Of a stretch of DNA of 64,000 nucleotides, positions 17,019 to 64,000 are shown piece by piece. The translations under genes and the position numbers were made by a program. The notes under the pieces are model-generated. The model was given only the letters and a program-made list of their open reading frames with translations. It was not told the DNA's origin and did no database searches. Location of the stretch: positions 43,426 to 107,425 of the forward strand of contig BTVY01000021.1 of the NCBI GenBank assembly GCA_045863335.1, given 5' to 3'. Each line of letters starts with the position of its first letter. Position 1 is the stretch's first letter. This stretch comes from Candidatus Hydrogenedentota bacterium (GTDB lineage Bacteria > Hydrogenedentota > Hydrogenedentia > Hydrogenedentales > SLHB01).

Positions 17019-17148
17019 CAGACTTCCCGCCAGAGGTTTGCGTACCGCACCAGAGTTTAGCGACCTCCACCACTCAATGCAAGCTATATTTTTGGCTAGA
17101 TACAGATAAGGCCAATTTTTCCAGCAACTTACAACGACATAAGCCAGT

Positions 17149-17163
17149 TGGCACAGCGATTGC
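17149..17163 (+). promoter_or_regulatory. Sigma-54 promoter of the psp operon
   Basis: TGGCAC-AGCGA-TTGC, consensus -24/-12. Confidence 0.85.
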
Positions 17164-17208
17164 CATTGACTCTGTTGTAAAGAAGCCAAGATCGGGAGAT
17201 TACCTAAG

Positions 17209-17712: not shown

Positions 17713-17759
17713 AGTGCCAAGTTTGCCGCTGGCGCGGCTAACAGGTCAAAGGAGGAGTC

Positions 17760-32755: not shown

Positions 32756-33373
<618 letters not shown>

Positions 33374-48500: not shown

Positions 48501-48818
48501 AGCGCCGCCGCCATTACTCCCGCCTTCGATGAACATGAATCCGGTGGTATGGGAGACCGTGTCCGGTACGGTGATGACGAGCCAATGCTCCCACAGCGTC
48601 CGATCCACTTCCGCCAACGTGAGCCAGGTCTGAGACTTCAGGTCGATGACGAAGTCGGTGTAACCGGCGCCGGGCACCACACTGTTCACCGACCACGCGT
48701 AACTCGCGTCCGGCGACGCCACGTAATCGTCCAGGGCCGTCGCCCCGGCGATACCCGGCGCCAAGAGCACGACCGCAACGAAACCCAAACAGACACCGGG
48801 AACCTTGGGTGTATACAT
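45597..48818 (-). CDS. Modular surface protein: PqaA-type hydrolase, propeller-like region, ZU5-like domain, TSP3 Ca-binding repeats and IPTL-CTERM-like anchor
   Basis: GASKRGWTTW, DQFFLPD, VPNAGH; FGPEGTQFSSPI..DHFS.Y; DxDxDG repeats; VPLETPWMIALLL...RR tail. Confidence 0.85.
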   Translation of the reverse strand: MYTPKVPGVCLGFVAVVLLAPGIAGATALDDYVASPDASYAWSVNSVVPGAGYTDFVIDLKSQTWLTLAEVDRTLWEHWLVITVPDTVSHTTGFMFIEGGSNGGGAPGGNSAELIAMALATNSVTARLRMVPNQPLTFTGDVPRWEDEQIAYAWDKYLTSGDPKWLSRLPMTKAAVRAMDTITALCASAQGGSHTVNQFVVAGASKRGWTTWTTAAVDTRVVAIAPLVIDLLNLEVSFEHHFAALGRWAPAIQDYVDMDIPSWFGTPEFGALLAEVGPYTYRDRYTMPKLVMNSAQDQFFLPDSSQFYWDKLPGEKYLRYVPNAGHGLNASAWNDVSAWYTALLTGTPRPEFSWVKNEDGSITVNTVDAPSQVLLWQATNPNARDFNIDNVGAIYTSSVLAPSGPNEYTAQLPVPANGWTAFFVELTFPSGGPNPFKFTTEVSVIPDVLPYGPQFALGPETEMLDAAFYAGEAVDGSNVAGRSAFFAQASNGADRVAFWAVNINTQQSAVFLVDIGDPSSWQRLTADAPNAPDAPIWWTPDDSAIVVGDSHVDVNSGVVTQPLYFGMYTLDDPSMTRLPSDNWIVTRHGDDMAAIPVLADGTEDASRLPKIVTNLTGVGVDVDWPAVNADGTAVTFADYHSSPTPGIGDQSDVYILTNLQDILTAPYQGATQYSSLAPVALDDDFLIDIRSGITPKGSFAPFFSTDETLVFYSEDWNRVFRDDDFFASLAASDFDIMIARAHGFEPEIRLTAPGNQAVAVPTPGGTRLTYIKDVAGVTHLMITTLEVSKRVGGSVVGAPANNDISVFQDQQFSDASGTSVAIDAGTMIDFPVGEPQEIQITTPIDPAQPAELPAGVSAIPVVREFGPEGTQFSSPITVTVSYTDGQVAGLDEANLEVFQYNSGTGVFDIPVTTIVARDLVNNTISFTVDHFSLYGIGAKLDTDGDGTTDDLDPDDDNDGYLDGDDPFPLDTDNDGIPNASDPDDDADGILDGDDTFPKDTDNDGIRNDVDPDDDNDGYTDIEESHWGTDPLDASDNPATKAVPLETPWMIALLLFALSLGAVIAIRRTARERA

Positions 48819-49060
48819 CGCGAGACCCCTCGAAGTTCGATATGCGGACGCACCTGTCCGCAGCCCGGTGTCCATTATTTCATGGAAGACCGATGGAGGC
48901 AACAACGGCCTGTTGGAGAGGAAGCCTCTTGGGTCGAGGCGACGAGAATTGGTTTACTTAACCGGAATCTCTCAGGTATCATTTGACCAAGAGAAACGCG
49001 CATCACCGTGTACCAGGGGGGCACGGCGCGAATTTCGATTACGTTGGAGGAACCAGCACC

Positions 49061-49204
49061 ATGGGAATCGATCCCGCAGTTCTCTTGTACTACCTGCAGT
49101 TGCTTGAACCCGTCTTCAGCTTCTTCACATCCTTCTCGGGGGTCATCCTGCAATTGTTCTTCCTGGGATTGGACTTTGGATCGTTTTTCCTCGGGTTCAT
49201 TTAG
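49061..49204 (+). CDS. Small Phe/Leu-rich membrane protein (47 aa)
   Basis: GGAGG RBS; MGIDPAVLLYYLQLLEPVFSFFTSFSGVILQLFFLGLDFGSFFLGFI. Confidence 0.65.
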   Translation: MGIDPAVLLYYLQLLEPVFSFFTSFSGVILQLFFLGLDFGSFFLGFI

Positions 49205-49283
49205 TTAACGACCCAAAACATCGAGTCCGTGCAGCATCCGACGGGACAATGCTCCGAGCTTGTCGCAGCGTTGTTAGATGTCC

Positions 49284-51296
49284 TCAGGTAGCGGGAATCT
49301 CTTTGGTCTCGCTGACGCGCTGATTGCTCTCGTCTTGCGAAGGACGCACCGCGGGAACCGGGCGCACGACCCAGGCCAGGGCCCCGACGGCCAGCACCGC
49401 GATTTCCACGACGTAGAAGATCATGAGCGCTTTCGCAATTCCGCTGGTGAAGCCGTAGCTGTGCAGGCCCACGCCGAGCAGGTTGACGCCGAACCATGAG
49501 AAGACAACGATCATCCCGCAGCAGACCGCGCCCATGACGATGCCGAACTCGCGAATGTACCCCGCCAGGCGGGCATGCAGCATAATCAGCATCCACAACA
49601 CGATCATGAGCGCGCCGTTCTCTTTCGGGTCCCAGCCCCAGAACCGGCCCCAACTGTAGTTAGCCCAGATGCCGCCGAGCACGGTCCCGACCGTGGCGAA
49701 GAGCAGCCCGAAGCACAGCACGCCGTAGGTCATCTTCGCGAGCGACCGGTAGAAGGCGGGGTCCTGCTTTCGCAGGCCGAGCGCGTACGCGAAGATGTAG
49801 ACATGGGCGATGGCCGCCGCAAGCAACCCGGCGGCGTACCCCATGGTGACGGTCGTCACGTGGGTGGACAACCAGAAATTCGTATCGAGCACGGCGATCA
49901 TGCTCGGCATGGTGTCCGTACCATCGATGACCTCGTATTTATTCGCGAGAAACACTCCGAGCGCACCCAGGATCGATGCCAGGGACAGGGCGATGCGCTG
50001 ACGGTTCACATACTCGATGAATAATGCAACCACGACGGCCACCGCCGTGATGAAAAGGATCGTTTCATATAGCGTCGTCACCGGTGGCCGGTTGCGAATG
50101 ATGCAGCGCATCGTGATGCCCGCCACGAGAACGAGCGTGGGCACGGTCACGGCGGCGAGGGTCAACCAGTTCAACGCCCGGTTCTTCGGTTTGATCCAAA
50201 GAATCGCCACGAGCAGAAAACTGAACAAATACAAATACAGGCTGCGATAGAAGAAATCCGCTTTGTAATAGGTCAATTCAAGAGGCACCTTGGCGTATTC
50301 ACCGCGTGCTTCGGCTATCGCCACGGTGGCGGCATTCAGCGTCTCGGCTTCCGCCGTAAACGATTCGGGAGCGTCCACGCTCGCTGCAACGCCCTCCCAC
50401 CCGCGAATCACGTCGATTTGTTTCGAAAGGTCCAGACCGGACATGAAGACAGCCTCGGCCAGGGAGGCGGGGTTGTACCATTCGCGCAACTCGCCGTCGG
50501 CCGGCGGCGGTATGACGGCCATGGCCCGCGAGTCGCCGACTGCGGCATTCATCGCGTTGATGAGCTTCTGAATCGAGGCCAGTTCCGCCTTCGTGGTTTC
50601 ATCTCCTCCGTGCGCGGCGTTCGAGCTTAACGAGATGTAGGCCTCTTGCAACGCAGACGCATTCCCCAACACGGTGCTAAGCGATACCGACTCGGCCTCG
50701 CCGAATATGCCTTTCAAGGTCGCGCTGTCTCCGACGACAAATGAAGCGCGGGCGAACTCGAGAAAAGAGGTCAGCGTCTCGAATTGATGCACGTTGTGGG
50801 CCAGGTTGATGAGCTGCGTCTGCGCGGGTGTCCGCTGTTCGTCGGCGATCTGCGAGAACTGACTTGCCTGAGTGAACAACGTCATGCGCGCCGAAGCCAG
50901 GTCGTTGTACGAATAGCGCGCCCGTTCGTCGGTGGCCGAGAGACCGGTCATGGACAGGACGTCCGCGTTCTCGATGAGGAAGTTTTTGTAGTTCTTGGCG
51001 CGATCCGGGTAGAACAGGCAGTCCAGCAGCCAGGCCATAGGCTCCAAGCGCTCTCCGTCGGGCGTTTCGATACTGCGCTTCCCGTTGATGCCCAGGAGCT
51101 GGAAAGCCGCAAAGGTATCCAACGGCTTGATGCGCCCGCCTTCCTGGATGGGAATCACGGCGAAGGCGTCTATGGCCGCACCGGACCACGCGGGGCGTGT
51201 CGACGCTTCGGCGGTGTCGGCGGTTTGCGCCCAACACGTCGCGCACACAAACGCAGCGAGAAGAATGGATGCCAGGTAGTTGGAATGGCGAATCAT
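49284..51296 (-). CDS. ccsA: Cytochrome c biogenesis system II synthase CcsA/ResC-like
   Basis: WWD domain WANYSWGRFWGWDPKE, HV.TVT, GLHSYG. Confidence 0.92.
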   Translation of the reverse strand: MIRHSNYLASILLAAFVCATCWAQTADTAEASTRPAWSGAAIDAFAVIPIQEGGRIKPLDTFAAFQLLGINGKRSIETPDGERLEPMAWLLDCLFYPDRAKNYKNFLIENADVLSMTGLSATDERARYSYNDLASARMTLFTQASQFSQIADEQRTPAQTQLINLAHNVHQFETLTSFLEFARASFVVGDSATLKGIFGEAESVSLSTVLGNASALQEAYISLSSNAAHGGDETTKAELASIQKLINAMNAAVGDSRAMAVIPPPADGELREWYNPASLAEAVFMSGLDLSKQIDVIRGWEGVAASVDAPESFTAEAETLNAATVAIAEARGEYAKVPLELTYYKADFFYRSLYLYLFSFLLVAILWIKPKNRALNWLTLAAVTVPTLVLVAGITMRCIIRNRPPVTTLYETILFITAVAVVVALFIEYVNRQRIALSLASILGALGVFLANKYEVIDGTDTMPSMIAVLDTNFWLSTHVTTVTMGYAAGLLAAAIAHVYIFAYALGLRKQDPAFYRSLAKMTYGVLCFGLLFATVGTVLGGIWANYSWGRFWGWDPKENGALMIVLWMLIMLHARLAGYIREFGIVMGAVCCGMIVVFSWFGVNLLGVGLHSYGFTSGIAKALMIFYVVEIAVLAVGALAWVVRPVPAVRPSQDESNQRVSETKEIPAT

Positions 51297-52462
51297 GATG
51301 CGGTCCTCGCTTCCTTTCGGAGGTAAAGGATCAGACGGTAGCAGAAGTGGACGAGCAATCCGGCAGTGATGATGATGCACGCATAGAGCGGCCACTGATC
51401 GGAAGGATTCTTGACCACGGCGAACGACGAGAACAGTGGATCGTTCGGACCGGCGTTTTGCGGTCCCCAGGACGCCTGAAACAGGGTGTACCCTTTGTAC
51501 CGGAGCGGTTTGTTCATGGAGATGTGAATCTTTTGCGTCGCCTCGGAATCGACGACGGTCACGTCGCTGCTGAAGGACGCAGGCCGGCTCGTGCCGGGGT
51601 GCAGGACGCGCGTGAAATCGTCGAGGATGACGGTGAACGGCAGGGGCCAGGTCCGCCGTCGCAAGGTGACGTCCCAGACGCCGGTGTTGGTCGCGATGCG
51701 GAACGGCGATTGGGCCATTCCCCAGAGTGCTCCTTCAAGCGTGGTGTCAGAACCTTTTTGGGCTGCGGTCGCGTAGAGACCGGCGACATTCCGTTCATTC
51801 TGCGGTTCCAGATCCAACGGCACAAGCGCGATTCCGCCGGCGATTTTGTTGCCGGCGGCCGCCGGCGCCGAGGCGGGCACCGCTGCGGCGTTACGCATGA
51901 ATCCCGTGAGTGTGAGGTCAAACGGCAAGTCCGCCTGGGCGAAGGTCGCGGCTTCGTTGCCGGTAGCTTGGGAGAACCTATCGCCCGGGATCACCAACTC
52001 TTTGGCCGGCCCTTCGCCTTTGACTTCCGTTATGGCCACTTCCCATTCGTGATAGCTCTCGAACACGTTGTTCTGTTCGCCTTCGTACAAGGTCAGGTGA
52101 CCGTCCTTCGACCATTTGAAGGTGATGAACCCGCCCAGCAGCATGAACAGAATGCCGATGTGCACGATGAACACGCCCAGGTGCGACCAGCCGGGCCGAA
52201 ACCGCACGATTGCGCCCAGGGTGAGATTGATAAACAGAAGAACGAGGAGTGAATACACCCCGGGCAGCGGCAGCAGCGGCACGCCGAAGACTTCCTGAAC
52301 GAGGAAGACCGAGTTGAAGTATTTTTCCTGTGCGGCGAACAGGCCGTGATCGACTTGCTCGAGCGTGCCGAGCAGCGTCAGCACGAGCAGGAAGAAGAGG
52401 ATGACGATGCCGAAGGCGTACGACGCGAGCCCCCGGTAAATGGCTTTCAGTGTAGCAATCAT
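51293..52462 (-). CDS. Cytochrome c biogenesis protein ResB/CcsB-like
   Basis: GTLEQ, HIG, ISMNKPLRYKGYTLFQASW; ATGA overlap with ccsA. Confidence 0.88.
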   Translation of the reverse strand: MIATLKAIYRGLASYAFGIVILFFLLVLTLLGTLEQVDHGLFAAQEKYFNSVFLVQEVFGVPLLPLPGVYSLLVLLFINLTLGAIVRFRPGWSHLGVFIVHIGILFMLLGGFITFKWSKDGHLTLYEGEQNNVFESYHEWEVAITEVKGEGPAKELVIPGDRFSQATGNEAATFAQADLPFDLTLTGFMRNAAAVPASAPAAAGNKIAGGIALVPLDLEPQNERNVAGLYATAAQKGSDTTLEGALWGMAQSPFRIATNTGVWDVTLRRRTWPLPFTVILDDFTRVLHPGTSRPASFSSDVTVVDSEATQKIHISMNKPLRYKGYTLFQASWGPQNAGPNDPLFSSFAVVKNPSDQWPLYACIIITAGLLVHFCYRLILYLRKEARTAS

Positions 52463-52481
52463 TTCCAGAATACTTCCGTAC

Positions 52482-53690
52482 TTACCGAAGTGACTCGCAA
52501 AACGCGATGAACTCGTCTTTGTTGGCCTGTACTTCGCTCGCGGGACCCGTCATCTTTACAAAGAGCGTTTCCCCTTCGAGCGGGCAAATGGCGCCGAGCA
52601 GCGCGAACGCGTCGCCACCCTGGCCGTCCATGTCCGTAAAGTCGCCCGTAATCTCGATCATCGGAGATGGTTTTCCCAAAATGGTAATGGTCGGCAACTC
52701 GGCGAGCGCGGGGCCATCCAGCGGCGCTTGCCCCATCTGCTGTTGCCAGCGGTTGACGTTTGCCTCGACGCCACCGGCCGGACCCGACAAGGAGGTGACG
52801 TAGCACTCCGTCTGGCCGCTCTCCCCCATGGTAAACGTGACGATCCGCATGGGCTTGTCCGGAGCTTGCGTCCACGATTCGGGAGCGGTCCAGTCTTGTA
52901 CGACGGAGGTGTCATCTCGCATACCGGGCGCCGGGGCCATTACCTGCATATCGCCGATCTCGGGATGTCCCTCAGGCAACTGCATGTCCGACTGCCCCGG
53001 AATCTCGGGATGTCCTTCGGGCAGTTGCGATTGTTCCTGGCCGGGAATTGGCGGGTGGCCTTCCGGCAGTTGGGTGGCCGGCTGCGCAGTTGCCGCTTCC
53101 AGGGACTCTGCAAAACTGAGGAAGTTCTCTTTCTCGCGATCTACCACCGCCGCCGGACCGGTCATCTTGACGAAGACGGCGTGGCCGCGATCTTCGAGAA
53201 TGAGGCCCAGCAGTTTGTAGCCGTCCTGGGCTTCGTCGCCCATGCCCTTGTATGCGCCTTCGAACTCAACGAGCAAGGCGTCTTGCCCAAGAACCTGGAC
53301 GGTGGGGTATTCCGCGAGTTCGGCGGCAGCAACCGGTTCCAGCGTTAGCTGCGCGCGCCACCGGTTGACATTGGCTTCCACGCCCCCGCCCGTACCGGAC
53401 AGGACGGTGAGGTAGCATTCCGCATCCGCTTCGGGATCGACTTTGAAATTCGCGGAACGATTTGGCGTAGAAGGAAGTTCCTGCCATGAGTCCGGCGCGT
53501 CCCACGTATAGGTGGCGACGGGCGAAGCACTGACCATGGTTGCGGGCGTGCCGGCCATCGCCGGTGCTGATGACGTGGCCGGATCGACGGTCCGCGTCTC
53601 CGTGATCTCCTGCGTGCCGTTGTCGCTGCACGACGCCCCGGCAAATGCCACAACAATCGCGACTGCCGAAAGGAGCAGACGCGCACGCAT
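52482..53690 (-). CDS. Lipoprotein with two tandem repeated domains and LPEGHP linker repeats
   Basis: Lipobox AGASC; CY.T.LSG..GGVEANVNRW...FVKMTGPA twice. Confidence 0.75.
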   Translation of the reverse strand: MRARLLLSAVAIVVAFAGASCSDNGTQEITETRTVDPATSSAPAMAGTPATMVSASPVATYTWDAPDSWQELPSTPNRSANFKVDPEADAECYLTVLSGTGGGVEANVNRWRAQLTLEPVAAAELAEYPTVQVLGQDALLVEFEGAYKGMGDEAQDGYKLLGLILEDRGHAVFVKMTGPAAVVDREKENFLSFAESLEAATAQPATQLPEGHPPIPGQEQSQLPEGHPEIPGQSDMQLPEGHPEIGDMQVMAPAPGMRDDTSVVQDWTAPESWTQAPDKPMRIVTFTMGESGQTECYVTSLSGPAGGVEANVNRWQQQMGQAPLDGPALAELPTITILGKPSPMIEITGDFTDMDGQGGDAFALLGAICPLEGETLFVKMTGPASEVQANKDEFIAFCESLR

Positions 53691-53940
53691 ACGATATACC
53701 TGGGCAAAATCGAGAAAAAACCGCATAGCAATATCCTGTCTATCAATGCGTTTCGTTGCCTTGCACGACACCGGGGCGATCCCCCGCAGAGGGAACTCCC
53801 GGCAATAGAACCCAAGTATAGCACCGTCGCGCCATCAAAGGCAGCTTGTCACCCGCCGGCGATCCAACAAGGATGCGGGGCGGCCGGTGCGACCGCCCCG
53901 CATGACGTGACAACTCTGTGGATTCTCGTAGCGCCCGGCG

Positions 53941-54552
53941 TCAGCCGCCAGATGCCTTCTTCGGATTCGAGTGATCGATCTTCTTCTTCGCCAATTCGAA
54001 GTCGAATCCAACCTTGGTCCCATCTTCCAACGTGTACCGCTCGGGATCCCAAGTCGGGGATTCCTCATTGTGACACTTGGTGCAGGTTTCCTTGGTGATT
54101 TCGGCTTGGGTCGCCGCCATGTCGATGGACGTATCCTTCTGGAACATCACTTTCTTACCGGCTGCGATGTGGTCCGAGCCGGGGCCGTGACACTCTTCGC
54201 AGCTCACGCCATCTTCCAGCTTGATCTTGTCCGGAACCGCGTTCGACGCGGCGTCAAAGGCCGTGACGTGGCACTTGATGCACTCCGGCGATTCCGCCGG
54301 GGGCTTCTCAAGACCCTTCTCCTCACCGATCTTGATGGCTTCAGGCGATTTCAGCGTCTCGAAGGCTTTCGCGTGCTCCTTGGATTTCCAGGTGTCGTAC
54401 TGTGCGCCCTCGTCCTTCTTGTTGTGGCACACTTTGCATTGGGATGATCCCGCAAAGTCCGCCGCTTGAGCCGAGTCGAACCCGAGACCCCAAGCCAGAC
54501 CGAGGCACAAGGCGCAAATCGCCAATGGTTGTACAATTCGTTTCATACGCAT
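53941..54552 (-). CDS. Periplasmic tetraheme cytochrome c (c554-like)
   Basis: Signal peptide; CKVCH, CIKCH, CEECH(GPGS), CTKCH; AAGGAGG RBS. Confidence 0.88.
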   Translation of the reverse strand: MRMKRIVQPLAICALCLGLAWGLGFDSAQAADFAGSSQCKVCHNKKDEGAQYDTWKSKEHAKAFETLKSPEAIKIGEEKGLEKPPAESPECIKCHVTAFDAASNAVPDKIKLEDGVSCEECHGPGSDHIAAGKKVMFQKDTSIDMAATQAEITKETCTKCHNEESPTWDPERYTLEDGTKVGFDFELAKKKIDHSNPKKASGG

Positions 54553-54590
54553 ATCCCTCCTTTCGAAACCTATACGTGGCCCTAACCGGC

Positions 54591-55619
54591 TCAGTGACAG
54601 AACCGGCAGTTTACGGTGCTGTTCTCCGGATGGGGCGCCCGATTGGTCTGTCCCCCCGGGTGGCACGCCGCGCAGGCCGCCGGATATACCAGCGCCCGGT
54701 GGGGCGACGGCAACGCGGACGGATGCTCGATGCTTTCGTGGCACACGACGCAGTTCGTCTTGGTCGGCGGATAGTGACACGACGTGCAGTGGTGATTTAC
54801 CGGCGGGCCCCATGCCCGGCGGTGCGATTCCGGTTCAGTATTCTGGTGGCACTGCAGGCACGAGTCCTCCTCGTGGCACACGCTACAGTTGTTGCGATCC
54901 CACGACGCCTGCATCCCGTGGGTCTTGCGGCGCCACGTCACGGTATGGCTGTCGGGCGCGGTCGTCGTGTGGCAATCGTCGCAAAACGCCTGCTCGGTGT
55001 GACACAACGCGCAATACTTGGGATCCACTTTGGACTCCGTTCCGTGAACCTTCGCCCAAATCGCCGGTTGGTCGTGGGCCAGATTCACCCCATATCTGGA
55101 CGACGGAATCGTGTCTTTATTCGTTTCCTTGTGGCAGACCGAGCACTCGTTCAGCGCGGGACTGGTCTTTCCGTGGCAATCCATGCAGAAGGGCTTCAGC
55201 GGTCCGCTTGGAAGGATGGCCTTGTCCACGTTGGTGTGGCAGGTGGCGCATTCCACTTCCGCCGCCACGTGGGGATCGTGATTGAATACAATGTCCGGGC
55301 CCAGGGGACTCTGGAACTCGGCGATCTCAAAACTCTCGTTCGTATGACAGAACCCGCAGGCCTCCGGCTCGGGATTGTCCATGTCGATATCATGGCACAC
55401 CGAACACGTATCATGTGTCGGGAAACCGTAGGTACCGCCTTCCTGGGGTTCGTGGCAGATGGCGCACTCCAGCCCTTGCTCGGTGTGCAGCGCATGGTTG
55501 ACCCGAACGCCCCGGTCTGCTTTTTCCGCTTTCGGCTGCGTGTAGGTAATGCAGGCCGCGACCAGCCCGCTCAGGGCAACCGCCACCACCAGCCAGAGAA
55601 TCCGTTGGCGCCGCGTCAT
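54591..55619 (-). CDS. 14-heme c-type cytochrome lipoprotein (c3/c7-like modules)
   Basis: 14 CxxCH motifs counted; NHxxH ligand motifs; lipobox LVAAC. Confidence 0.9.
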   Translation of the reverse strand: MTRRQRILWLVVAVALSGLVAACITYTQPKAEKADRGVRVNHALHTEQGLECAICHEPQEGGTYGFPTHDTCSVCHDIDMDNPEPEACGFCHTNESFEIAEFQSPLGPDIVFNHDPHVAAEVECATCHTNVDKAILPSGPLKPFCMDCHGKTSPALNECSVCHKETNKDTIPSSRYGVNLAHDQPAIWAKVHGTESKVDPKYCALCHTEQAFCDDCHTTTAPDSHTVTWRRKTHGMQASWDRNNCSVCHEEDSCLQCHQNTEPESHRRAWGPPVNHHCTSCHYPPTKTNCVVCHESIEHPSALPSPHRALVYPAACAACHPGGQTNRAPHPENSTVNCRFCH

Positions 55620-55641
55620 GCTGTAAGTCTCCTACGCAAGG

Positions 55642-57372
55642 TCAGAACTCCAGTGTATAGCCCGCACGCACCCGCCAATAGGGCGAATCGTCGCTATCGT
55701 CTTCTTCAAAGCTCACGGCCAGGCTCACGTCCTGATTCTCGGCAAACTGCCAGCGCAACCGGCTGAACACCGAGAAGATGTCGTCGTTGGTCTCGTACGG
55801 TTTCACATCGCGAAGCCGCACCGTGAAGTTGTTGTCGTAATAGGCCGTGTTGGAATTCGGGTTCAGGGATGCGATGGCCCTCCGCACGCCGTTCTTCCAT
55901 TGAGGGAAGAAATCGTAGCGGCTGCCGTCGCGCTCGTATCGTTCGTAGTTCGCGCCAAGCGTCAGCGACAGGTCGTTCCACTTCTTCGTGACGTCCCCGC
56001 CCACCGACCAGGACGCGTCGCCTCCGTCCACGTCCCACACCTGGAACGAGGAGGAGGCGCTCAAGCCCCAGAAAAGTTCGTCCGCCGTGAGGATGACGGC
56101 GAAGCGGTTGTAGTCGCGGTTAGCGCGATCGGCGTAGTCGTAGTCGTGATCGTACGCGCGCATCCAGGAATCGGGGTAGTCCGCGTCGACCCGGTGGACC
56201 TGGCCTTCCAGGGTGAGCGTGAACTTCTCGCCCAGGGGCCGGTGCAGGACCAGCAGGAAGTCGTCGTACTCGTGCTCAGGACCGAAGATGCGGTAGTACC
56301 CAGTCAGGTCGCTGGCGCGATCCTCGTGCGCGCTCATCAGCCGCCGGTAGGTTGCTTGATACGTCACCTTCCAGGAGGGGATCTGCCCGGTTGCTTGAAG
56401 GGTCAATTCGTCACCGCTATTGCTGTAAAGATCCAGCCGTCCGAACAGGGTCAAATTCGCGGTAACGACTTGCCAAACGCTGAGTGATATGCGGGTGTCC
56501 TCTTGTTCGCCGTCCACGTCGCGCGGGAAGTCGCGATACAGGAGATTGCTCAAGCGGGGCCGGATATACCGGTCGTAATCGTGGCGATGGTCGTCTTCCC
56601 AATACACATCGACGGCAACACGCGTACTCGTGGTCAATTGCGCGGAAAGGCCGCCGCCCGCGACCGGGTCTTCGAAGTCGTCGCCGTACATCGAGGCTTG
56701 CCATCCGCCGAAGACGTACCAGTCCCATCGGGCGTGACGTTGCTTGAAGTACAGTCCGTCAAAACGATTGAATGCGGGGCCTTCCTGAACGCGCTGGCGC
56801 CCGAACCGCAGCGTCGAATCGCCCCACAAGTCGTCCACGTCGAGGTAGAGGTACACGACCCGGGCATCCACGTCCGAGTCGTAGTTGTCGTCAAGGTCGC
56901 GGAGCGTGTTGTATCGCTCGTCGTCGGAATCGAGGTCTTCCCGGAGCCAGAACAGGCTGCGCACGTGAATGTTCTCAAGCCCCGGCGGGTCTACGTTGAA
57001 CTGAAGCGTCTGATCAAGATCGATGTCGGATTCGGAATCGGACCATGTGCCGTCGAACCCAGCCGTAAACCGGCCGTAATACCAGCGGTCTTTTTCGGTC
57101 ATACCGGGGTCTTCGGCTTCGGCTTCCACTTCGGGTTCCGCGTCAGATTCGGGTTCCACGGAATCAGCTTCCGGCGCTGGGGACGGTTCCGCAGCTTCTT
57201 CAGCCGCGGCGGCCGGTTCTTCGGGACTCTCTTCCTGGGCGAATCCAGGTAACGCGACCGCGAATGCGCTCAAGACGCTCAACAGGAGCCACGCATGGCG
57301 TAAACGAGCCCCTCTCGCGCCGCCCCCTTTCCGTCGAATCGGCTGACATCGATCACGGCGCTTCCGGTACAT
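55642..57372 (-). CDS. Putative outer-membrane beta-barrel (cytochrome-associated porin)
   Basis: Signal peptide, amphipathic beta pattern, C-terminal RAGYTLEF ending in Phe; located between multiheme genes; start uncertain. Confidence 0.75.
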   Translation of the reverse strand: MYRKRRDRCQPIRRKGGGARGARLRHAWLLLSVLSAFAVALPGFAQEESPEEPAAAAEEAAEPSPAPEADSVEPESDAEPEVEAEAEDPGMTEKDRWYYGRFTAGFDGTWSDSESDIDLDQTLQFNVDPPGLENIHVRSLFWLREDLDSDDERYNTLRDLDDNYDSDVDARVVYLYLDVDDLWGDSTLRFGRQRVQEGPAFNRFDGLYFKQRHARWDWYVFGGWQASMYGDDFEDPVAGGGLSAQLTTSTRVAVDVYWEDDHRHDYDRYIRPRLSNLLYRDFPRDVDGEQEDTRISLSVWQVVTANLTLFGRLDLYSNSGDELTLQATGQIPSWKVTYQATYRRLMSAHEDRASDLTGYYRIFGPEHEYDDFLLVLHRPLGEKFTLTLEGQVHRVDADYPDSWMRAYDHDYDYADRANRDYNRFAVILTADELFWGLSASSSFQVWDVDGGDASWSVGGDVTKKWNDLSLTLGANYERYERDGSRYDFFPQWKNGVRRAIASLNPNSNTAYYDNNFTVRLRDVKPYETNDDIFSVFSRLRWQFAENQDVSLAVSFEEDDSDDSPYWRVRAGYTLEF

Positions 57373-57467
57373 TCCGTATCCCCTTCCGCAATGCGCTATC
57401 CATTTCCGGCCTATTCCCCACATCCACGGCCACTACCCCAAAAATTCCTATCTTCCTTGACGAAAGC

Positions 57468-58289
57468 CTACGGCGCGGACTTTGCCCCGTACCACATTTC
57501 GTAGACGCCCTGAAGCCCAATCATCGTCGCCTCATTGTCCACATTGAATACGGGCGAAGCCGGTACGGTACCGTCGTGACACCCCATGGTACCCGCGCAC
57601 GAATTCGGCGGCACCGGCGTTACACCGTTTTGCGACGCCTCTGCCGAGACAATCGGCGGTATCGGATCGAAGGTGTGGCTATGGGGCCCGTCGTCCTGGT
57701 TGGTGCGGACCTTCGGTGGCATATGACAACTCGTGCACCGGCTCGCGCCGGTCCCGGTGGGATCGACGGAATGATTCGTGTGTTGTTCGATCTGGGATTC
57801 CGTCTGGAACCCGTCGAATACATGACAGGAACGGCACAGTAAATTGTTGGTAAAGGGTCCGATTGTTTCGATGGGCGAATGCACGTCGTGGCAGTCGTAA
57901 CAGGAAACTGAACGGCTTACATGGTGGCCGCTCTGTTGGAAATCTTCGACGATTTCCTGGTGGCAGGCGGTGCAAGCCGCGTAGGACAACTCGTAAGCGC
58001 CGAAGGCGGGATTGATGAGCGCGCCGCCCAGTCCCCCGCTCTGTACATGCGCTTCGGCCCCGACGTGGCAGGTATCACAGGAAACGCCCCGGTGGGAACT
58101 CAGCAGGAAGGTCCGCATATCCTTAGCGGTACGGCCGTTGTGACAACCGAGACAGGTCGTGGTGCTTCCCGCGCCGCCCACGGGCGCGCTCGGGCAACCC
58201 GTTGTCAACGAGACAACCAGCGCCAGCACTACGACACCGGTGCTAACTGCACAGAAACGCACCCTCGGACTAGCCGAACGCATCGTCAT
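57468..58289 (-). CDS. Multiheme c-type cytochrome lipoprotein (6 CxxCH plus 1 CX5CH)
   Basis: CLGCH, CDTCH, CTACH, CYDCH, CRSCH, CTSCH, CAGTMGCH; lipobox TTGC. Confidence 0.88.
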   Translation of the reverse strand: MTMRSASPRVRFCAVSTGVVVLALVVSLTTGCPSAPVGGAGSTTTCLGCHNGRTAKDMRTFLLSSHRGVSCDTCHVGAEAHVQSGGLGGALINPAFGAYELSYAACTACHQEIVEDFQQSGHHVSRSVSCYDCHDVHSPIETIGPFTNNLLCRSCHVFDGFQTESQIEQHTNHSVDPTGTGASRCTSCHMPPKVRTNQDDGPHSHTFDPIPPIVSAEASQNGVTPVPPNSCAGTMGCHDGTVPASPVFNVDNEATMIGLQGVYEMWYGAKSAP

Positions 58290-58776
58290 TACCGCACCCC
58301 CTTCGTTGCGTGAGTTGGACGTGCCCTCTCCCAAGGAACGTCCCCCCACGACCGGCCCTATTCCGCAGGATTGAAATCCTTGAGTTTCCATCTGGAACAA
58401 CCCACGTGACTTGGCCACCGTGTGTAATCTAATCGCGACCACCGGAAGGTGTCAAGCCTAGTATCTTCAGTTCCATACCCGGCAGGCGATTGACTCCGGC
58501 GCACAACGCTGGCTCGCGGGAAAAATAGAGCAATTCTGGTGCCCAAAACTGGGAATTCTGCCTGCAACGATACTTGATGCATGCATCATTGGTTTTTGAG
58601 CGACCGGAAGACTCGCCAGAGTGCGCAATGCGCCAAGCACTTGAGCACATCTGCGTGCGCACATTTGTCCAACACGCCTCACCCAGATTCTCCTTTTTTC
58701 CTCCTCGAAGCCTCGGCATGGTCATTAACGGCGCACAATGCAGGACGGCAGGCAAACCGCGTACCTTGCCGCATTC

Positions 58777-58792
58777 GGGCATTCAACTTGCA
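58777..58792 (+). promoter_or_regulatory. Possible sigma-54 promoter for the NapC/NirT-like gene
   Basis: GGGCAT-TCAAC-TTGCA with GG-N10-GC spacing. Confidence 0.45.
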
Positions 58793-58892
58793 TGTTCAAC
58801 CGCTCCGGGATCTACCGGATCCCCGGCAAATCTGGTATTTTTGTAAAATGCATGGAGTACGAACGGGGTAAACGGCGGGAGAGAGAGAACCC

Positions 58893-60386
58893 ATGATTAA
58901 GTTTTTCGCGAAACTGTTGGGGGCCCTAATCTGGTTGTTCATGCGCAACTGGCTAACCGTGTTGGGTGCCGGTCTGACGACAATCAGCTTCTTGGCGATC
59001 GCGGCACTGGTTGCACTTGAGCTCACAGGGATAATCGTCTCGCCCTACCTGGGTATCGTCGCGTTCCTCATCCTGCCGGGCTTCTTCGTCGCCGGATTGG
59101 TCCTCATCCCCGTGGGGGCGCTGTGGCAGCGGCGCGTGGAACGGAAACATGGAAAAGTAAGTTCAGGCGATGAGCCCTACGCTCTACCTAAGATTGATTT
59201 CAATAATCCTCGCACGCAACGGATCGCGATTATGGTCCTTCTGCTCACCTTCGTGAATCTGTTCATCATCGGCGCTACCAGTTACAAGAGCGTCGTGTAC
59301 ATGGATTCCGTCGAGTTCTGCGGGGAAGTGTGCCACACCGTCATGAAACCCGAATTCACGGCGTACAAAAACTCGCCCCATTCCCGGGTCGAGTGCGTCG
59401 AGTGTCATATCGGACCCGGAGCGCCTTGGTTCGTGCGTTCCAAACTGTCCGGCACCGGCCAGCTATTTGCGGTCACGTTCGACACGTACGAACGTCCGAT
59501 CCCAACCCCGGTGGAAAACCTGCGCCCATCGCGGGACACTTGTGAGCAGTGCCACTGGCCTGAGCGATTTACGGGCGACCGTGTGCGGGTCATCAAGCGA
59601 TTCCAGGAAGACGAAGCGAACACACCTGTTCATACCGTACTTCTGATGCACATCGGGGGCGGTCAAGAAGGCTCCGGCGGTATCCATAGTTGGCACATCG
59701 CCCCCGGCCGTGAAACCACCTATCTGGCCGCGGACCCAGAGACGGGCGAACCGGATCCGACTCGACGGAAGATTGCCATGGTCCGCGTTAAGGAAGCGGA
59801 CGGAACCGTAACGGAGTACAAAGCAGACGGGTTCGAGCCGACACCGGAACTCCTGAACTCGCAGGAGTTTCGCGTGATGGACTGCATTGACTGTCACAAT
59901 CGGCCTACCCATGTGTTTGAGCTGCCCTTCCAGGCAGTGGACAAGGCCCTTGCCAGCGGGGACATCGACCCGACGCTGCCGTATATCCGCGCGAAGGCGG
60001 TCGAAGTGCTGGAGGCGGTCGAGGTAGAACACTCCGATCTGGAGATGATTGAAACCAAATTGCTGGAGCATTTTCGTGAATCATTTGGCTCGGACTACGA
60101 CGCCAATGCCGAACGCGTTGAAAGGGCAATACACGAAGTCCAGGCAATCTATAGCCGGAATGTCTTTCCGGACATGGATGTCACGTGGGGAGACTATCCG
60201 AACAACCTCGGGCACCTGGCGGACCGGGTTCCTTACGAAGGGTTCGAAGGCTGCAATCGTTGCCATGACGGCGGCCATTCCACGACTGATGGACGCATCA
60301 TCAACAACGATTGCACCCTGTGTCACAGCGTGCTTGCCATGGAAGAAGAGGACCCGCAGATTCTCGTCGATCTTGGCATCCACTAG
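58893..60386 (+). CDS. Membrane-anchored NapC/NirT-family multiheme cytochrome c (quinol dehydrogenase-like)
   Basis: Three N-terminal TM helices; FCGEVCH, CVECH, CEQCH, CIDCH, CNRCH, CTLCH. Confidence 0.88.
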   Translation: MIKFFAKLLGALIWLFMRNWLTVLGAGLTTISFLAIAALVALELTGIIVSPYLGIVAFLILPGFFVAGLVLIPVGALWQRRVERKHGKVSSGDEPYALPKIDFNNPRTQRIAIMVLLLTFVNLFIIGATSYKSVVYMDSVEFCGEVCHTVMKPEFTAYKNSPHSRVECVECHIGPGAPWFVRSKLSGTGQLFAVTFDTYERPIPTPVENLRPSRDTCEQCHWPERFTGDRVRVIKRFQEDEANTPVHTVLLMHIGGGQEGSGGIHSWHIAPGRETTYLAADPETGEPDPTRRKIAMVRVKEADGTVTEYKADGFEPTPELLNSQEFRVMDCIDCHNRPTHVFELPFQAVDKALASGDIDPTLPYIRAKAVEVLEAVEVEHSDLEMIETKLLEHFRESFGSDYDANAERVERAIHEVQAIYSRNVFPDMDVTWGDYPNNLGHLADRVPYEGFEGCNRCHDGGHSTTDGRIINNDCTLCHSVLAMEEEDPQILVDLGIH

Positions 60387-60575
60387 CTGCATCCAAAATC
60401 GAATAGCGCCAGAGCAGGTGTCCCGAGCCTGAACGAACGAGGACAGTTGTGTACGGGCACATACGCTCAATCCTGCGGGAGCAAGCGCATATCAACGGAA
60501 CAGCCGGGGCTGAATGTGGTGCCTAACCCGTTTCAAATAGGCTTTTTGCAAATCCAAACTGTCATGTGCCTCATT

Positions 60576-60591
60576 TGGCATAGAAGGTGCT
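60576..60591 (+). promoter_or_regulatory. Probable sigma-54 promoter for the MtrC/OmcA-like gene
   Basis: TGGCAT-AGAAG-GTGCT. Confidence 0.6.
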
Positions 60592-60790
60592 TATAAAGCA
60601 CCGATTTAGAAGTACCCGAGTCGTGGGCGCGCATCGTGAAGGCGCTCGATAACCACATTTGAATATGCCGTGTCGAGATTCCGAACCCCAAAAAAACGGG
60701 GCTCCGGCGGTTATGTTATATTGGAACTCATACGATTTGGGGTGCCATGACCTACTTCATGGCGAGTAACAGGGAAAGGGGGCATTTACA

Positions 60791-62881
60791 ATGGTGCACA
60801 GCAAAAGGATTGGCAGAGCGTTCTCCCTATGCGCGCTCAGTCTTGTTGTGGCCCTGGCAGTGGGCTGTCCGGGCACACCAGGACCACAGGGGCCTGAAGG
60901 CCCTCCAGGACCCGAAGGCCCTCCGGGACCTGCGGGGCCGGAGGATTTCGGCGGCAACGCGCCGGGACTGCACATTACGATTGAAAAGGTGGACATTCCG
61001 GCGGACTTGCGCCCTGTTGTCACCTTTACTGCCGTGGATGACCGGGGCGACACGCTGGCCCTGAATGAGTTCACCGACATCCGGTTCATCATGGGCTTCC
61101 TGAAGGCGTACGTGAACGGCGGCACGCTGAAGTATTCGAGCTACACGACGCGCACGGATGCCGGGCAAACTCAAGCCACGACGGATAACGCGCGTCTGGG
61201 CGGTTTGACCCAGAATAAGAACGGCAAGTTCAAGTACAAGTTCCAGACCGCATTGCCGGCCAACTACGACGCGTCTGCCAGCCATCAGGTGGCCGCGCAA
61301 GCCGTCCGTGAGTTTGCGGCAAACGAGACCGAATACCCGGACAACCCATGGTTTGCTTGGGTGCCGGACGGGACCACGGCGCTTGAGGTACGCGACATCG
61401 TGGACACGGAGACGTGTAACACCTGTCACACCCGGCTCGAATTCCACGGCGGCGACCGTCGTGAGATTCAATACTGCATCATGTGCCACTCGCCGCAGAG
61501 CACGGACGGTCAGTCGCTGAACTCGGTCGACATGGCAGAGATGATTCACAAGATCCACATGGGCGAAGAGCTGCCCAGCGTGCAGGACGGCGAAGACTAC
61601 TTCATCGGGGGATTCACCGGCCCGATCAGTTACTCTGACGTGGTGTTCCCGCAAGACATTCGCAATTGCGAAGTCTGCCACGGCGAAGAGAAGGCATCCT
61701 TCTACCTCGAAAACCCGACCAAATCGGGATGCGCGTCGTGCCACGACCGGACCTGGTTCGGACTGGCCGCGAACACGCCGGCGGGATTCGTTCACCACAG
61801 CAGCGCCGATGGCATGCTGGACGTGGACCTCAATCTTCCGGACGATTCGCTCTGCGCGGGCTGCCATTTGCCGGAATCCGGAGTGGCTCCGATTCTTCCC
61901 AATCACGTGACGCCGCTCGAAAGCGACGACGCGCCGGGCCTGCAGTTCGCGATCAACTCGGTGAACGTAATCAATCCGGGTCCGACGGCACAGCCCGTCG
62001 TCAACTTTACGGTGACGGACAAGAACGGCGATCCGTACACGAACCTCAATAGCCAATTGACGGCGTGCAACGCGCTGCTCGCGTGGCCCGCGGACGATTA
62101 CGAGCAGTACATCAATGCAGGCGTGCGAAACAGCATGAACCTCGTGAATAACGGAAACGGCAACTACACGTATACGTACACGGAGACCTTCGATTCGACG
62201 ACGACCGACACCTTCGGCATCGCGATGACGGGCCGGTTGACCTTCATGCACGACGGCGCAAGCGTAACGCAGGGTCCGTCGGCGAACGGCCTGACCTTCT
62301 TCCGTATGGACGGTGGATTGGTCGAGCCTCGGCGCGAAGTCATCGATGAAGAGGCATGTAACGTGTGTCACGACGGCGTTCGCGCTCACGGTGAACAACG
62401 CTTCGGAGTAGGCGTGTGCGTCATGTGTCACAACCCGAACGAGACGGATGAAGCGCGTCGCCCGATGGGTGAAATGCCGCCGGTTACCGTCAACTTCAAG
62501 GACATGCTGCACAAGATCCACACCGGCGAAGATCTCGAAGGCGCCTACACGGTGTACGGCTTCGGAAACACGCCGCACGACTTCACGCACATCCGGTTCC
62601 CGGCCCCGCTCCAGGATTGCAGCCTCTGCCACGCGGAAGACACGTACCTGCTTCCGGTACCGGAAGAGGCGCTGTCGACCCTGGTGGTCCAGGAAACGGG
62701 TGGTCCGACGGTGATTAGCGAGACCATGCCGGAGGCGGCAGCATGCACGACGTGCCACGACGGCCTGGCCGCGAATGTCCACGCGTTCATCAACACGGCG
62801 CAGGGCGTGGAAACCTGCGTCGTGTGCCACGGTGAAGAAGCGGACTACGCGGTGAGCGAGATTCACATGCTTGAACCCTAA
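60791..62881 (+). CDS. OmcA/MtrC-family decaheme c-type cytochrome lipoprotein
   Basis: Lipobox LAVGC, collagen-like GPx repeats, 10 CxxCH in two pentaheme blocks, MIHKIH and MLHKIH, FPQDIRNC. Confidence 0.92.
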   Translation: MVHSKRIGRAFSLCALSLVVALAVGCPGTPGPQGPEGPPGPEGPPGPAGPEDFGGNAPGLHITIEKVDIPADLRPVVTFTAVDDRGDTLALNEFTDIRFIMGFLKAYVNGGTLKYSSYTTRTDAGQTQATTDNARLGGLTQNKNGKFKYKFQTALPANYDASASHQVAAQAVREFAANETEYPDNPWFAWVPDGTTALEVRDIVDTETCNTCHTRLEFHGGDRREIQYCIMCHSPQSTDGQSLNSVDMAEMIHKIHMGEELPSVQDGEDYFIGGFTGPISYSDVVFPQDIRNCEVCHGEEKASFYLENPTKSGCASCHDRTWFGLAANTPAGFVHHSSADGMLDVDLNLPDDSLCAGCHLPESGVAPILPNHVTPLESDDAPGLQFAINSVNVINPGPTAQPVVNFTVTDKNGDPYTNLNSQLTACNALLAWPADDYEQYINAGVRNSMNLVNNGNGNYTYTYTETFDSTTTDTFGIAMTGRLTFMHDGASVTQGPSANGLTFFRMDGGLVEPRREVIDEEACNVCHDGVRAHGEQRFGVGVCVMCHNPNETDEARRPMGEMPPVTVNFKDMLHKIHTGEDLEGAYTVYGFGNTPHDFTHIRFPAPLQDCSLCHAEDTYLLPVPEEALSTLVVQETGGPTVISETMPEAAACTTCHDGLAANVHAFINTAQGVETCVVCHGEEADYAVSEIHMLEP

Positions 62882-62918
62882 CCCTTCAGCAACAACCACC
62901 TCAGTTGCTTGATTGCGG

Positions 62919-62955
62919 CCCGGGCGGGTAGGAAATCCTACCCGCCCGGGCTGTT
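62919..62955. terminator. Hairpin between the convergent mtrC-like and sulfatase genes
   Basis: CCCGGGCGGGTAGGA-AA-TCCTACCCGCCCGGG followed by a T-rich tail. Confidence 0.75.
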
Positions 62956-62994
62956 TCTTGGGAACGCGATTGCTACGTCACCGACGAGAGCAGA

Positions 62995-63946
62995 TTACGG
63001 CTGGTACGCGGGATTGTACTCGCCCCGTTCGGCGAATCCGCCCAATTCGGGGCGCATGGGACTCACGCGGGGATAGGAGTCGAAAACGTCGCCGGTGCCG
63101 AGCGCGCGTGGATCGCCCTGTTCAGTCAGCAGGGACATGAGGTCGTTCCGCATGCGGTTCACGACACCCTGATGCGCGGGGTCGCTTGCCAGATTGGCGA
63201 GACAGGCCGGATCTTCCTGCACCGCGTACAGCTCATCCTCCGGACGTTTCCCGACCGCCGCTTCCAGTAAAGCGGCCCAATCGCCTCCCTCCATCACCAG
63301 CCGTTTGGTCGGCGATTCGTCGATGTCGTGGTACTCCGGCGGATCGCCCGCCGGCCAGCGGTCGGATTTGAAATTGCGGATGTACAGGTAGTCTTCAGTG
63401 CGGATGGCGCGCGAAGGGTATCCCCAGTTGTCGTAGCGCGCATGGGTATGCCGCTCGCGCCCTGTCAACACATGGTCCCGATACGAGTCGGTCTTGCCCG
63501 CGAGCAGCGGCGTCATTGTCGCGCCCACCATCGTGCCGGGAACGTCCACGCCCGCAAGGTCCAGAAACGTCGGCGCGAAATCGACGAAGCTCATGAGCGC
63601 GTCGGTCGGGCGTCCTTGGGGAAACCGTTCGGGCCAGCGTATGGCAAGGGGCACGCGGGTTCCGTACTCATAGAGGTTGGCCTTGGCTCGCGGGAAGGGC
63701 ATGCCGTTGTCACTCGTGACAACGACAACCGTGTTGTCCAGTTCGCCCAGTTCGTCAAGCCGTTGCAGCATCCGAGCCAACTGGGAATCAAACCACTCGA
63801 TCTCCACGAAGTAATCGAGCATATCGCTGCGCACCGTGGGATGGTCAGGAAGGAACTCCGGCACGCGAACTCGAACGGGATTCTTGCCGGATCGAATGCC
63901 GGAACCCTGTTCGTACCGAAGATGGGGTTCGCTGGACCCGTACCAG
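62995..63946 (-). CDS. Sulfatase (sulfamidase-like), 3' exon downstream of a group II intron
   Basis: WYGSSEPH..YEQGSG...VPEFLPD, TSDNGMPFPRAK.NLYE, GRERH; homology stops abruptly at the intron boundary. Confidence 0.85.
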
Positions 63947-64000
63947 ATCGAGTAGGAGGGGGAGGATAGTTCCTCCCCCGTCCTCTCACACCACCGTACG
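63947..64000 (-). mobile_element. 3' end (domain V distal half and domain VI) of a group II intron, class C (IIC)-type
   Basis: Minus strand CGTACGGTGGTGTGAGAGGACGGGGGAGGA..TCCTCCCCCTCCTACTCGAT matches the IIC DV/DVI consensus with bulged A and terminal AY. Confidence 0.88.

Follow-up and report, generated by a model that had tools for sequence, protein, structure and literature searches.

A divergent gene cluster of Candidatus Hydrogenedentota, first described at positions 53941–62881 of a 64-kb stretch of contig BTVY01000021.1 (the whole stretch is called the window here), probably encodes an entire chain for outward electron transfer, with a core of the porin–cytochrome conduit (Pcc) type, as judged from its genes and from structure models. 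The core is a triad of genes for a 7-heme lipoprotein, an outer-membrane porin and a 14-heme lipoprotein, and it is accompanied by genes for a c554-like tetraheme cytochrome, an ImcH-type inner-membrane protein and an MtrC-family decaheme lipoprotein. The cluster is real, conserved and mechanistically coherent. Pcc-type conduits themselves are already known, and what is new here is the combination of one with ImcH and MtrC. A preliminary description of this DNA had called the arrangement non-canonical, a term that we have dropped, since the core agrees with known Pcc architecture and is not non-canonical in principle.

Gene content and heme count

The map of open reading frames (ORFs) bears out the two divergent arms that had been drawn for the cluster. 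Its genes are the following:

53941..54546, minus strand: soluble tetraheme c554-like cytochrome (PF13435, E 4.7e-19; 1bvb, E 9.5e-12)
54591..55619, minus strand: 14-heme lipoprotein of 342 aa (14 CxxCH motifs, lipobox, complex model, synteny)
55642..57372, minus strand: predicted 22-strand plugless outer-membrane beta-barrel (AlphaFold2 model, loop pattern, fold matches)
57468..58289, minus strand: 7-heme lipoprotein with 6 CxxCH plus CX5CH (motifs, lipobox, MtrA-like profile match, synteny)
58893..60386, plus strand: ImcH-type inner-membrane protein, putative quinol oxidase, of 497 aa with three transmembrane segments, CX3CH and 5 CxxCH (PF03264, transmembrane prediction, motifs)
60791..62881, plus strand: decaheme lipoprotein of the MtrC/OmcA family, tethered by a short Gly-Pro repeat (TIGR03507, MtrF match)

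The five cytochrome ORFs hold 39 CxxCH motifs (4 in the c554-like protein, 14, 6, 5 in the NapC/NirT-type protein and 10 in MtrC), the same total as in the preliminary description, and a six-frame tally of the window gave 42 matches, 39 of them within 53941–62881. Two atypical motifs are also conserved, CX5CH in the 57468–58289 protein and CX3CH in the 58893–60386 protein, so that the likely number of hemes is 41. The first of them brings to a likely seven the hemes of a lipoprotein for which six to seven had been proposed. As had also been stated, no decaheme MtrA/DmsE-like ORF is present in the ORF and motif list of the window: the best that the DmsE model found was the 7-heme protein, with 43.7 bits against a cut-off of 192.2, and the MtrB model TIGR03509 gave no match.

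Structure of the porin and of its 14-heme partner

The protein at 55642–57372, noted earlier as beta-barrel-like, was indeed modeled by AlphaFold2 (61 sequences) as a barrel of 22 strands with no plug, with a mean predicted local distance difference test (pLDDT) of 81 and a predicted template modeling score of 0.78. Its loops alternate between long and short, and its C-terminal residue is Phe. The start is uncertain (ATG at 57423 or 57372), and residue numbers are counted here from window position 57300. Fold comparison returned generic large barrels (best Z 18.4, root mean square deviation 4.2, 369 residues aligned), the best ranked being TonB-dependent receptors and ushers. A TonB-dependent receptor was rejected, as there is no plug, only an acidic low-confidence linker of about 50 residues before strand 1, and no Pfam match. 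MtrB, which has 26 strands in its solved structure, was ruled out by the hidden Markov models and the strand count, 6r2q_B standing at rank 23 (Z 15.5, deviation 5.0, 365 aligned).

No Pfam or NCBIfam family matched the porin, TIGR03509 included (E 0.1), so standard annotation would miss the conduit. Sequence searches gave no solved homolog, 6r2q_B included, and distant relatives in the family scans (28 proteins for NCBIfam, 75 for Pfam) had weak generic porin matches only. Relatives of the porin numbered 62 among 8000 scored candidates, and five of the seven with a taxon name were Ca. Hydrogenedentes; a profile search yielded 542 representatives at E 0.001, the best 150 of which were listed. 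A tree built from 101 sampled sequences separates close from distant porins with a support of 1.0. Plasmid searches returned nothing for the porin and one weak cytochrome match. Three apparent porin–cytochrome fusions (P0056, P0090 and P0161) look like frameshift read-throughs and were counted as signs of adjacency only.

The 14-heme gene lies 22 bp downstream of the porin gene. Its product has 14 CxxCH motifs, a conserved lipobox and 14 conserved distal His, one for each heme, which points to bis-His ligation and no catalytic site. Fourteen motifs are present in 110 of 112 close relatives. Of 125 distant relatives, 111 have 13, and the spacing in their C-terminal part is almost unchanged. This distant 13-heme family aligns with the 14-heme protein over its full length (probability 100); it gave 999 matches at E 1e-5, and all nine taxon-named sequences among the 120 listed are from Planctomycetota. 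The N-terminal half (hemes 1–6) resembles ActA and c7. For the C-terminal half, fold and sequence searches gave no clear solved match, which does not imply a novel fold.

For the complex, porin residues 73–552, 7-heme residues 46–263 and 14-heme residues 41–342 (the scored partner) were folded together three times. The interface score (ipSAE) was 0.68, 0.69 and 0.68, and 0.00 in all three controls; the 7-heme and 14-heme proteins without the porin scored 0.00. Contact agreement between the runs was at least 61%, and the pLDDT of the partner at least 65. Among the calibration pairs, 116 of the 157 solved ones and 2 of the 215 mismatched ones come up to this score mark; the calibration is rough for a three-chain job with its own alignments. 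The confident contacts join cytochrome residues 178–296 (hemes 7–12) with 17 of the 22 porin strands, and they fall on inward-facing positions in the eight strands checked. The c3-like half makes none of the listed contacts with the barrel. Because the best pairs put residues 226–255 at the strand ends by the long loops, the c3-like half would be periplasmic and hemes 13–14 outside. Thus, the model supports binding in which hemes 7–12 thread the 22-strand barrel, with hemes 13–14 presumably surface-exposed and hemes 1–6 in the periplasm. The earlier proposal that this protein fills the porin survives as far as the lumen subunit is concerned, but the model puts its C-terminal repeat half inside rather than the c3/c7-like one.

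The 7-heme lipoprotein

The CX5CH motif of the 7-heme lipoprotein is present in 36 of 36 aligned sequences, and its lipobox Cys is invariant. Its profile found the best PDB match in residues 60–188 of 6r2q_A (E 9.8e-22), a 333-residue chain of the Mtr complex entry that is listed under another name and that we take to be MtrA; by this sequence comparison, the first five hemes are related to MtrA/NrfB. Residues 60–188 form the periplasmic end of MtrA. Relatives come as 7- and 9-heme forms by means of a two-heme insert, and the 7-heme gene is replaced in one locus (L030:2–1288) by a gene for a repetitive cytochrome of 21 or more hemes.

A match to the periplasmic end of MtrA, together with lengths that vary as those of a spacer might, would suit a periplasmic adaptor that feeds the 14-heme protein and leaves MtrC as the sole surface terminal. 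Such a role is unlikely, however, as the triad persists without MtrC, the protein in L030 is swapped for one with at least 21 hemes, and atypical motifs and higher variability are described for the outer-surface Pcc cytochromes and not for the periplasmic ones (PMC4245776). The three-chain model is neutral on its location, with no confident contact between the 7-heme and 14-heme chains. Under the reading that we favor, of an outward chain on a Pcc-type core, the 7-heme lipoprotein may itself be a surface terminal.

The ImcH-type, tetraheme and MtrC-family cytochromes

The three transmembrane segments and the NapC/NirT type assigned earlier to the 58893–60386 protein were found again (three hydrophobic segments, 5 CxxCH and a CX3CH present in 16 of 16 aligned sequences). 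ImcH is described as a protein of about 495–519 aa with three N-terminal transmembrane segments, a CX3CH by the membrane, five to nine CX2CH and a NapC/NirT domain (PMC6295460). By this published list the gene fits ImcH, since the size, the segments, the position of CX3CH and the CX2CH count all agree. With Geobacter ImcH the protein shares its 497 aa, three transmembrane segments, a CX3CH next to the membrane and the NapC/NirT domain; it has five typical motifs against six (family range 5–9), and it differs in that its gene is clustered with a porin–cytochrome set and MtrC. No mtrAB was reported next to imcH in a 2018 survey (PMC6295460). The quinol-to-surface chain proposed earlier therefore keeps its gene set, but with a quinol oxidase gene that fits ImcH rather than CymA. 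Identity with CymA/NapC was rejected, as three transmembrane segments and six hemes stand against a single-segment tetraheme, and the NapC models scored far below cut-off. No solved homolog of this protein was found.

The tetraheme protein is c554-like, as anticipated: it has the PF13435 domain and matches Nitrosomonas c554 (1bvb). It was not accepted as Nitrosomonas CycA, having the PF13435 domain only and 46.5 bits with NF043010 against 400. It may serve as a periplasmic shuttle.

The OmcA/MtrC decaheme assignment holds: TIGR03507 scored 425.3 bits against a cut-off of 209.3, and MtrF (3pmq) aligned in both halves (E 2e-26). No CX8C is present in the mature MtrC of the window or in the MtrC of 15 loci, the single match being upstream of a lipobox. 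In Shewanella MtrC the CX8C pair, a disulfide of domain III, limits peroxide formation in air (PMC9973256), and so its absence from these sequences suggests anoxic use. In one locus (L005:1852–4025) mtrC is split by a frameshift, which may be an error or mark a pseudogene.

Conservation and co-divergence of the cluster

A genome scan with the porin gave 40 loci (L001–L040), titled Hydrogenedentota (24), Nitrospiraceae/Nitrospirales (10), uncultured bacterium (4), FCB group (1) and Bathyarchaeia (1). The porin of the window is 97% identical to that of L001 (Hydrogenedentota) and 96% to that of L002 (Nitrospiraceae), and this near-identity across titles suggests to us that most of the titles other than Hydrogenedentota come from mislabeling or misbinning. 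One genome contributes two copies, L035 and L036. Upstream of the porin, the 7-heme gene occurs in 35 of the 36 loci with room for it; downstream, the 14-heme gene occurs in 37 of 37. The genes of the c554-like, ImcH-type and MtrC-family proteins are found in 18, 15 and 15 of the 40 loci, respectively, and the triad stands alone in 4 of the 14 loci with both flanks of at least 7 kb. Apart from MtrC itself, no MtrA-sized or other decaheme ORF was found in any of the 40 loci.

The inner-membrane modules are interchangeable, as judged from gene neighborhoods: CbcL/MtrH-like proteins (multiheme plus cytochrome b) are near the triad in L008, L011 and L031, and a 4Fe-4S gene is present in L008, L021 and L039, in the last two beside a tetraheme. 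In L008:3913–8693 and L011:3187–8329 the CbcL/MtrH-like proteins are a 19-heme and an 11-heme protein encoded in tandem next to the triad, both containing a cytochrome b domain; L008 also has a 13-heme c3-like protein. In L012, an 8-heme Ig/PKD surface lipoprotein cytochrome is beside the triad.

Sequence distances correlate with those of the porin at r 0.82 for the 14-heme protein and 0.65 for the 7-heme protein (31 loci), and at 0.79 for MtrC (0.61 without within-clade pairs) and 0.84 for ImcH (15 loci each); these are weak evidence, as distance pairs share ancestry and are not independent.

MtrC, counted earlier as a part of the conduit, is a genuine member of its family but an accessory gene, missing in 6 of the 14 long loci. 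One could propose that the triad is a self-sufficient Pcc conduit, and that MtrC partners a canonical MtrAB encoded elsewhere and is kept here for shared regulation and heme maturation. The triad has its own lipoprotein terminal and does without MtrC in those six loci, and in Desulfobacterota mtrC can sit apart from mtrAB, by cytochrome biogenesis genes (PMC12133095). Nevertheless, MtrC keeps beside the triad in 15 loci through several different gene orders, its distances track those of the porin, there is no MtrA-sized decaheme in any locus, and L012 has a different surface lipoprotein cytochrome in the same company. We consider a distant MtrAB partner quite unlikely, and an outward chain in which MtrC may take electrons from the triad remains the preferred reading.

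Comparison with known systems

Pcc porins have 18–22 strands and inner cytochromes of 5–14 hemes, with forms of 338–344 residues and 12–14 hemes in Kuenenia (kuste4024/4025) and Anaeromyxobacter, where the clusters consist of two genes (Shi et al., PMC4245776). Likened by published architecture, the core matches this Geobacter/Kuenenia-type anatomy, with a 22-strand porin and a 14-heme, 342-aa neighbor whose gene adjoins that of the porin and whose motifs are all typical (14 CxxCH). As in OmbB-OmaB-OmcB and ExtABCD/EFG, a variable lipoprotein cytochrome carries an atypical motif (here the CX5CH of the 7-heme protein). Porin and inner cytochrome may also diverge together more than porin and outer cytochrome do, as described for Pcc (r 0.82 against 0.65 over 31 loci, with overlapping resampled ranges). 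A conserved Pcc core with replaced surface lipoproteins has been described (Otero et al., PMC6148476). The cluster differs from Pcc in the conserved lipobox of the 14-heme protein, in the presence of a 7-heme partner, where long-cytochrome forms are mostly without a third cytochrome, and in the clustering of MtrC, ImcH, c554 and maturation genes with the core. No Pcc reference protein (OmbB/OmaB, kuste4024/4025) was among the best 120–150 of up to 999 matches listed. Atlas look-alikes belong to Planctomycetota, Myxococcota, Verrucomicrobiota and Ignavibacteriota, which overlap the lineages of known Pcc carriers.

With Shewanella MtrCAB the cluster shares a true MtrC-family decaheme lipoprotein, the cytochrome-in-barrel principle and, in the 7-heme protein, the first five hemes of MtrA. 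It differs in having no MtrA decaheme, MtrB (28 strands predicted; PMC4245776) or mtrCAB order in the window, in an MtrC without the CX8C disulfide of its Shewanella counterpart (PMC9973256), and in the use of ImcH and system II maturation in place of CymA and system I. With no MtrA decaheme, no MtrB porin and no CX8C, the conduit is not MtrCAB.

The EET1–4 systems of peat (bioRxiv 10.64898/2026.05.27.727921), compared here by description only, are likewise conserved, divergent clusters of porin and multiheme genes in uncultured heterotrophs; they come from Acidobacteriota and Verrucomicrobiota, their representative cytochromes have 8–13 hemes, and a 13-heme relative of the 14-heme family may be among their sequences. 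Mtr, Omc and Pcc have been reported together only in Desulfobacterota, according to Shaw et al. (PMC12133095). In agreement with the earlier remark on the lineage, the literature searched, which mostly did not cover subscription papers, gave no porin–cytochrome conduit for Hydrogenedentota: the main text of Baker et al. (PMC8805035) contains neither 'hydrogenedent' nor 'imcH', and the name of the phylum is absent from three supplement files of PMC12545173.

Proposed electron path and its direction

In the chain that we propose, the ImcH-type protein would oxidize membrane quinol, as its family does, and the soluble tetraheme would ferry the electrons across the periplasm to the ActA/c7-like domain (hemes 1–6) of the 14-heme protein. 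Hemes 7–12 would carry them through the 22-strand barrel, as modeled, to hemes 13–14, presumably oriented toward the surface, where the 7-heme lipoprotein, MtrC or both would act as terminals. The electrons may end on Fe(III)/Mn(IV) oxides or humics, on an electrode, or in a partner cell. The adjacent ResB/CcsA genes would supply the 41 heme attachments, and in the window's clade a sigma-54 enhancer protein may turn on both arms together, probably under anoxia.

The same conduit could run inward and take up electrons from Fe(II) or reduced humics, from a cathode, or from a syntrophic partner. Porin–cytochrome wires are reversible (PMC6295460), Cyc2 homologs have been reported in Hydrogenedentota metagenome-assembled genomes (PMC9769843), and CbcL/MtrH-like modules, which are found in oxidizers and reducers alike, are beside the triad in three loci. 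For ImcH, however, quinol oxidation is the only role indicated to date, and the protein has been found only in Fe(III) reducers (PMC6295460). The mtr clusters of Fe(II) oxidizers tend to be without mtrC (PMC4245776), and the window also has genes for sulfatases and glycoside hydrolases, as is typical of a heterotroph; inward flow is therefore very unlikely. That the cluster serves no extracellular electron transfer at all but periplasmic respiration or electron storage, the barrel being an unrelated transporter, is hardly credible despite the TonB-dependent receptors and ushers among the fold matches and the likeness of the 14-heme N-terminal half to ActA of alternative complex III, given the missing plug domain, the strict porin/14-heme linkage, the modeled lumen complex, the true MtrC and a cluster with no catalytic subunit.

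Regulation

Putative control elements were located at the following positions:

58529..58543, minus strand: sigma-54-type −24/−12 site of the 7-heme/porin/14-heme/c554 operon (pattern and score)
58778..58792, plus strand: sigma-54-type site of the ImcH-like gene (pattern and score)
60577..60591, plus strand: sigma-54-type site of mtrC (pattern and score)
58643..58670, no strand: tandem 14-bp palindrome, candidate enhancer-protein site midway between the divergent sigma-54 sites
60441..60468, no strand: another copy of this tandem palindrome, some 110 bp ahead of the sigma-54 site of mtrC
53873..53903, minus strand: GC-rich hairpin following the tetraheme gene, resembling a terminator or attenuator (RNA fold)
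62915..62954, no strand: 18-bp terminator-like hairpin between mtrC and a convergent sulfatase gene (RNA fold)

The strict sigma-54 pattern found 5 sites against 0.9 expected, a count that is partly circular because the pattern was tuned on the three sites of the window; a relaxed score found 10 window-wide against 2–7 in the nulls. Further sites of this type precede a DUF1559 prepilin-like gene (11308–11322) and glnK-glnA (32841–32855), the latter being an expected sigma-54 target. When upstream regions were scored with a sigma-54 consensus at a threshold of 11, matches were obtained for 9 of 35 7-heme, 6 of 15 ImcH and 7 of 16 mtrC regions (0.55, 0.35 and 0.3 expected) and for 0 of 38 before each of the internal genes; most come from the window and L002–L007.

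A matrix for the palindrome was built from 7 of 10 candidate training sites, all from L003–L007, with a seed consensus picked out by eye in alignments of which the window was a part. It scored 27.3 at 58643 and 24.0 at 60441, the first two ranks in the window, against 7.8 for the next unrelated site and 6.5–13.2 for the null maxima. Both boxes are about 100–135 bp from a sigma-54 site. A model with a 15-bp period missed the window sites, and one with a 14-bp period found them. Sigma-70 promoters were discarded, as the scan gave 3 sites against 3.0 expected; one TTGACA site, near 58455, is nevertheless seen again in L002, L003 and L005. The search for riboswitches (Rfam, 48500–64000) returned one match at chance level.

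A sigma-54 activator gene is linked to the cluster in only 1 of the 40 loci (L004:10353–15688), where a hemN-like gene, a PAS histidine kinase and a REC-PAS-sigma-54 activator stand beside it. The first PAS domain of this kinase is presumably FixL-like, and the kinase and activator are a candidate oxygen-sensing regulator. A gene for a membrane histidine kinase, shared by four loci, is also found by mtrC or the triad in L027:10182–11663, L029:2286–3839, L031:4129–5622 and L040:12075–12455, the last as a C-terminal piece only. At 15927–18431 of the window, a sigma-54 activator gene is oriented divergently to pspA and a PilZ gene; this is probably a PspF-type unit unrelated to the cluster.

Maturation genes and other neighbors

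Downstream of the tetraheme gene are the following genes:

49284..51296, minus strand: system II cytochrome c synthase of the CcsA/ResC type, with 670 aa when read from the ATG at 51296 (PF01578, E 3.6e-23)
51293..52462, minus strand: ResB-type cytochrome c maturation protein (PF05140, E 5.7e-19)
52482..53726, minus strand: lipoprotein that contains three LPEGHP repeats and whose gene heads the maturation block (lipobox in relatives)

These system II maturation genes (49284–53726) belong to the cluster, which extends downstream to include them. The CcsA/ResC-type protein scored 119.8 bits with TIGR03144, under the cut-off of 187.6. Near the triad, CcsA is found in 10, ResB in 9 and the LPEGHP lipoprotein in 8 of the 40 loci. 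The lipoprotein has no Pfam or NCBIfam match; it has a duplicated domain, is tied to ResB/CcsA in relatives and is possibly a heme or apocytochrome chaperone. One predicted protein, the distant porin relative P0153, has an N-terminal part that is ResB-like by eye, hinting at a linkage of porin and maturation genes in distant lineages too. A PhoPQ-related (PF10142) protein with TSP3 repeats (45597–48818) adjoins the cluster in the window and in L002, L005 and L035.

Discussion

Several observations weigh against the outward chain as proposed, in addition to the separate mtrC of Desulfobacterota. The complex was folded without hemes and its controls were unrelated natural proteins, so that part of the score may come from a general resemblance to the cytochrome-in-barrel plan of MtrAB, and the C-terminal half of the 14-heme protein has a pLDDT of about 51–77 when modeled by itself. 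The resampled mirror-tree ranges of the 14-heme and 7-heme proteins overlap (0.65–0.81 and 0.55–0.74). MtrC and ImcH are each present in 8 and missing in 6 of the 14 loci with long flanks. Outside the window's clade, sigma-54 scores of at least 11 are found in 3 of 28 (7-heme), 0 of 8 (ImcH) and 2 of 9 (mtrC) upstream regions, and the shared box is found only in the window and L002–L007.

A more specific reading, which we put forward tentatively, is that of a natural Pcc–MtrC hybrid, in which a conduit of the Geobacter/Kuenenia type passes electrons straight to a Shewanella-type MtrC in a genome without MtrAB. It would form one sigma-54 regulon, and its inner-membrane modules (ImcH, CbcL/MtrH-like, NrfC-type) and surface modules could be exchanged. 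If this were true, Ca. Hydrogenedentota would be overlooked heterotrophs respiring minerals, humics or partner cells, and the 13-heme sister family (999 matches; those named among the 120 listed are Planctomycetota) would represent an extensive group of conduits whose porin lacks a Pfam or NCBIfam model.

The cluster offers a compact set of genes, from the quinol oxidase and the shuttle through the conduit to its terminals, together with maturation genes and promoters. It also yields a predicted structure of a Pcc-type conduit with a long cytochrome, and PDB searches gave no solved homolog of such a conduit. It bears on the interchangeability of Mtr and Pcc parts, as MtrC may accept electrons from a wire other than MtrA, and it suggests that a widespread, uncultured phylum is capable of extracellular electron transfer.

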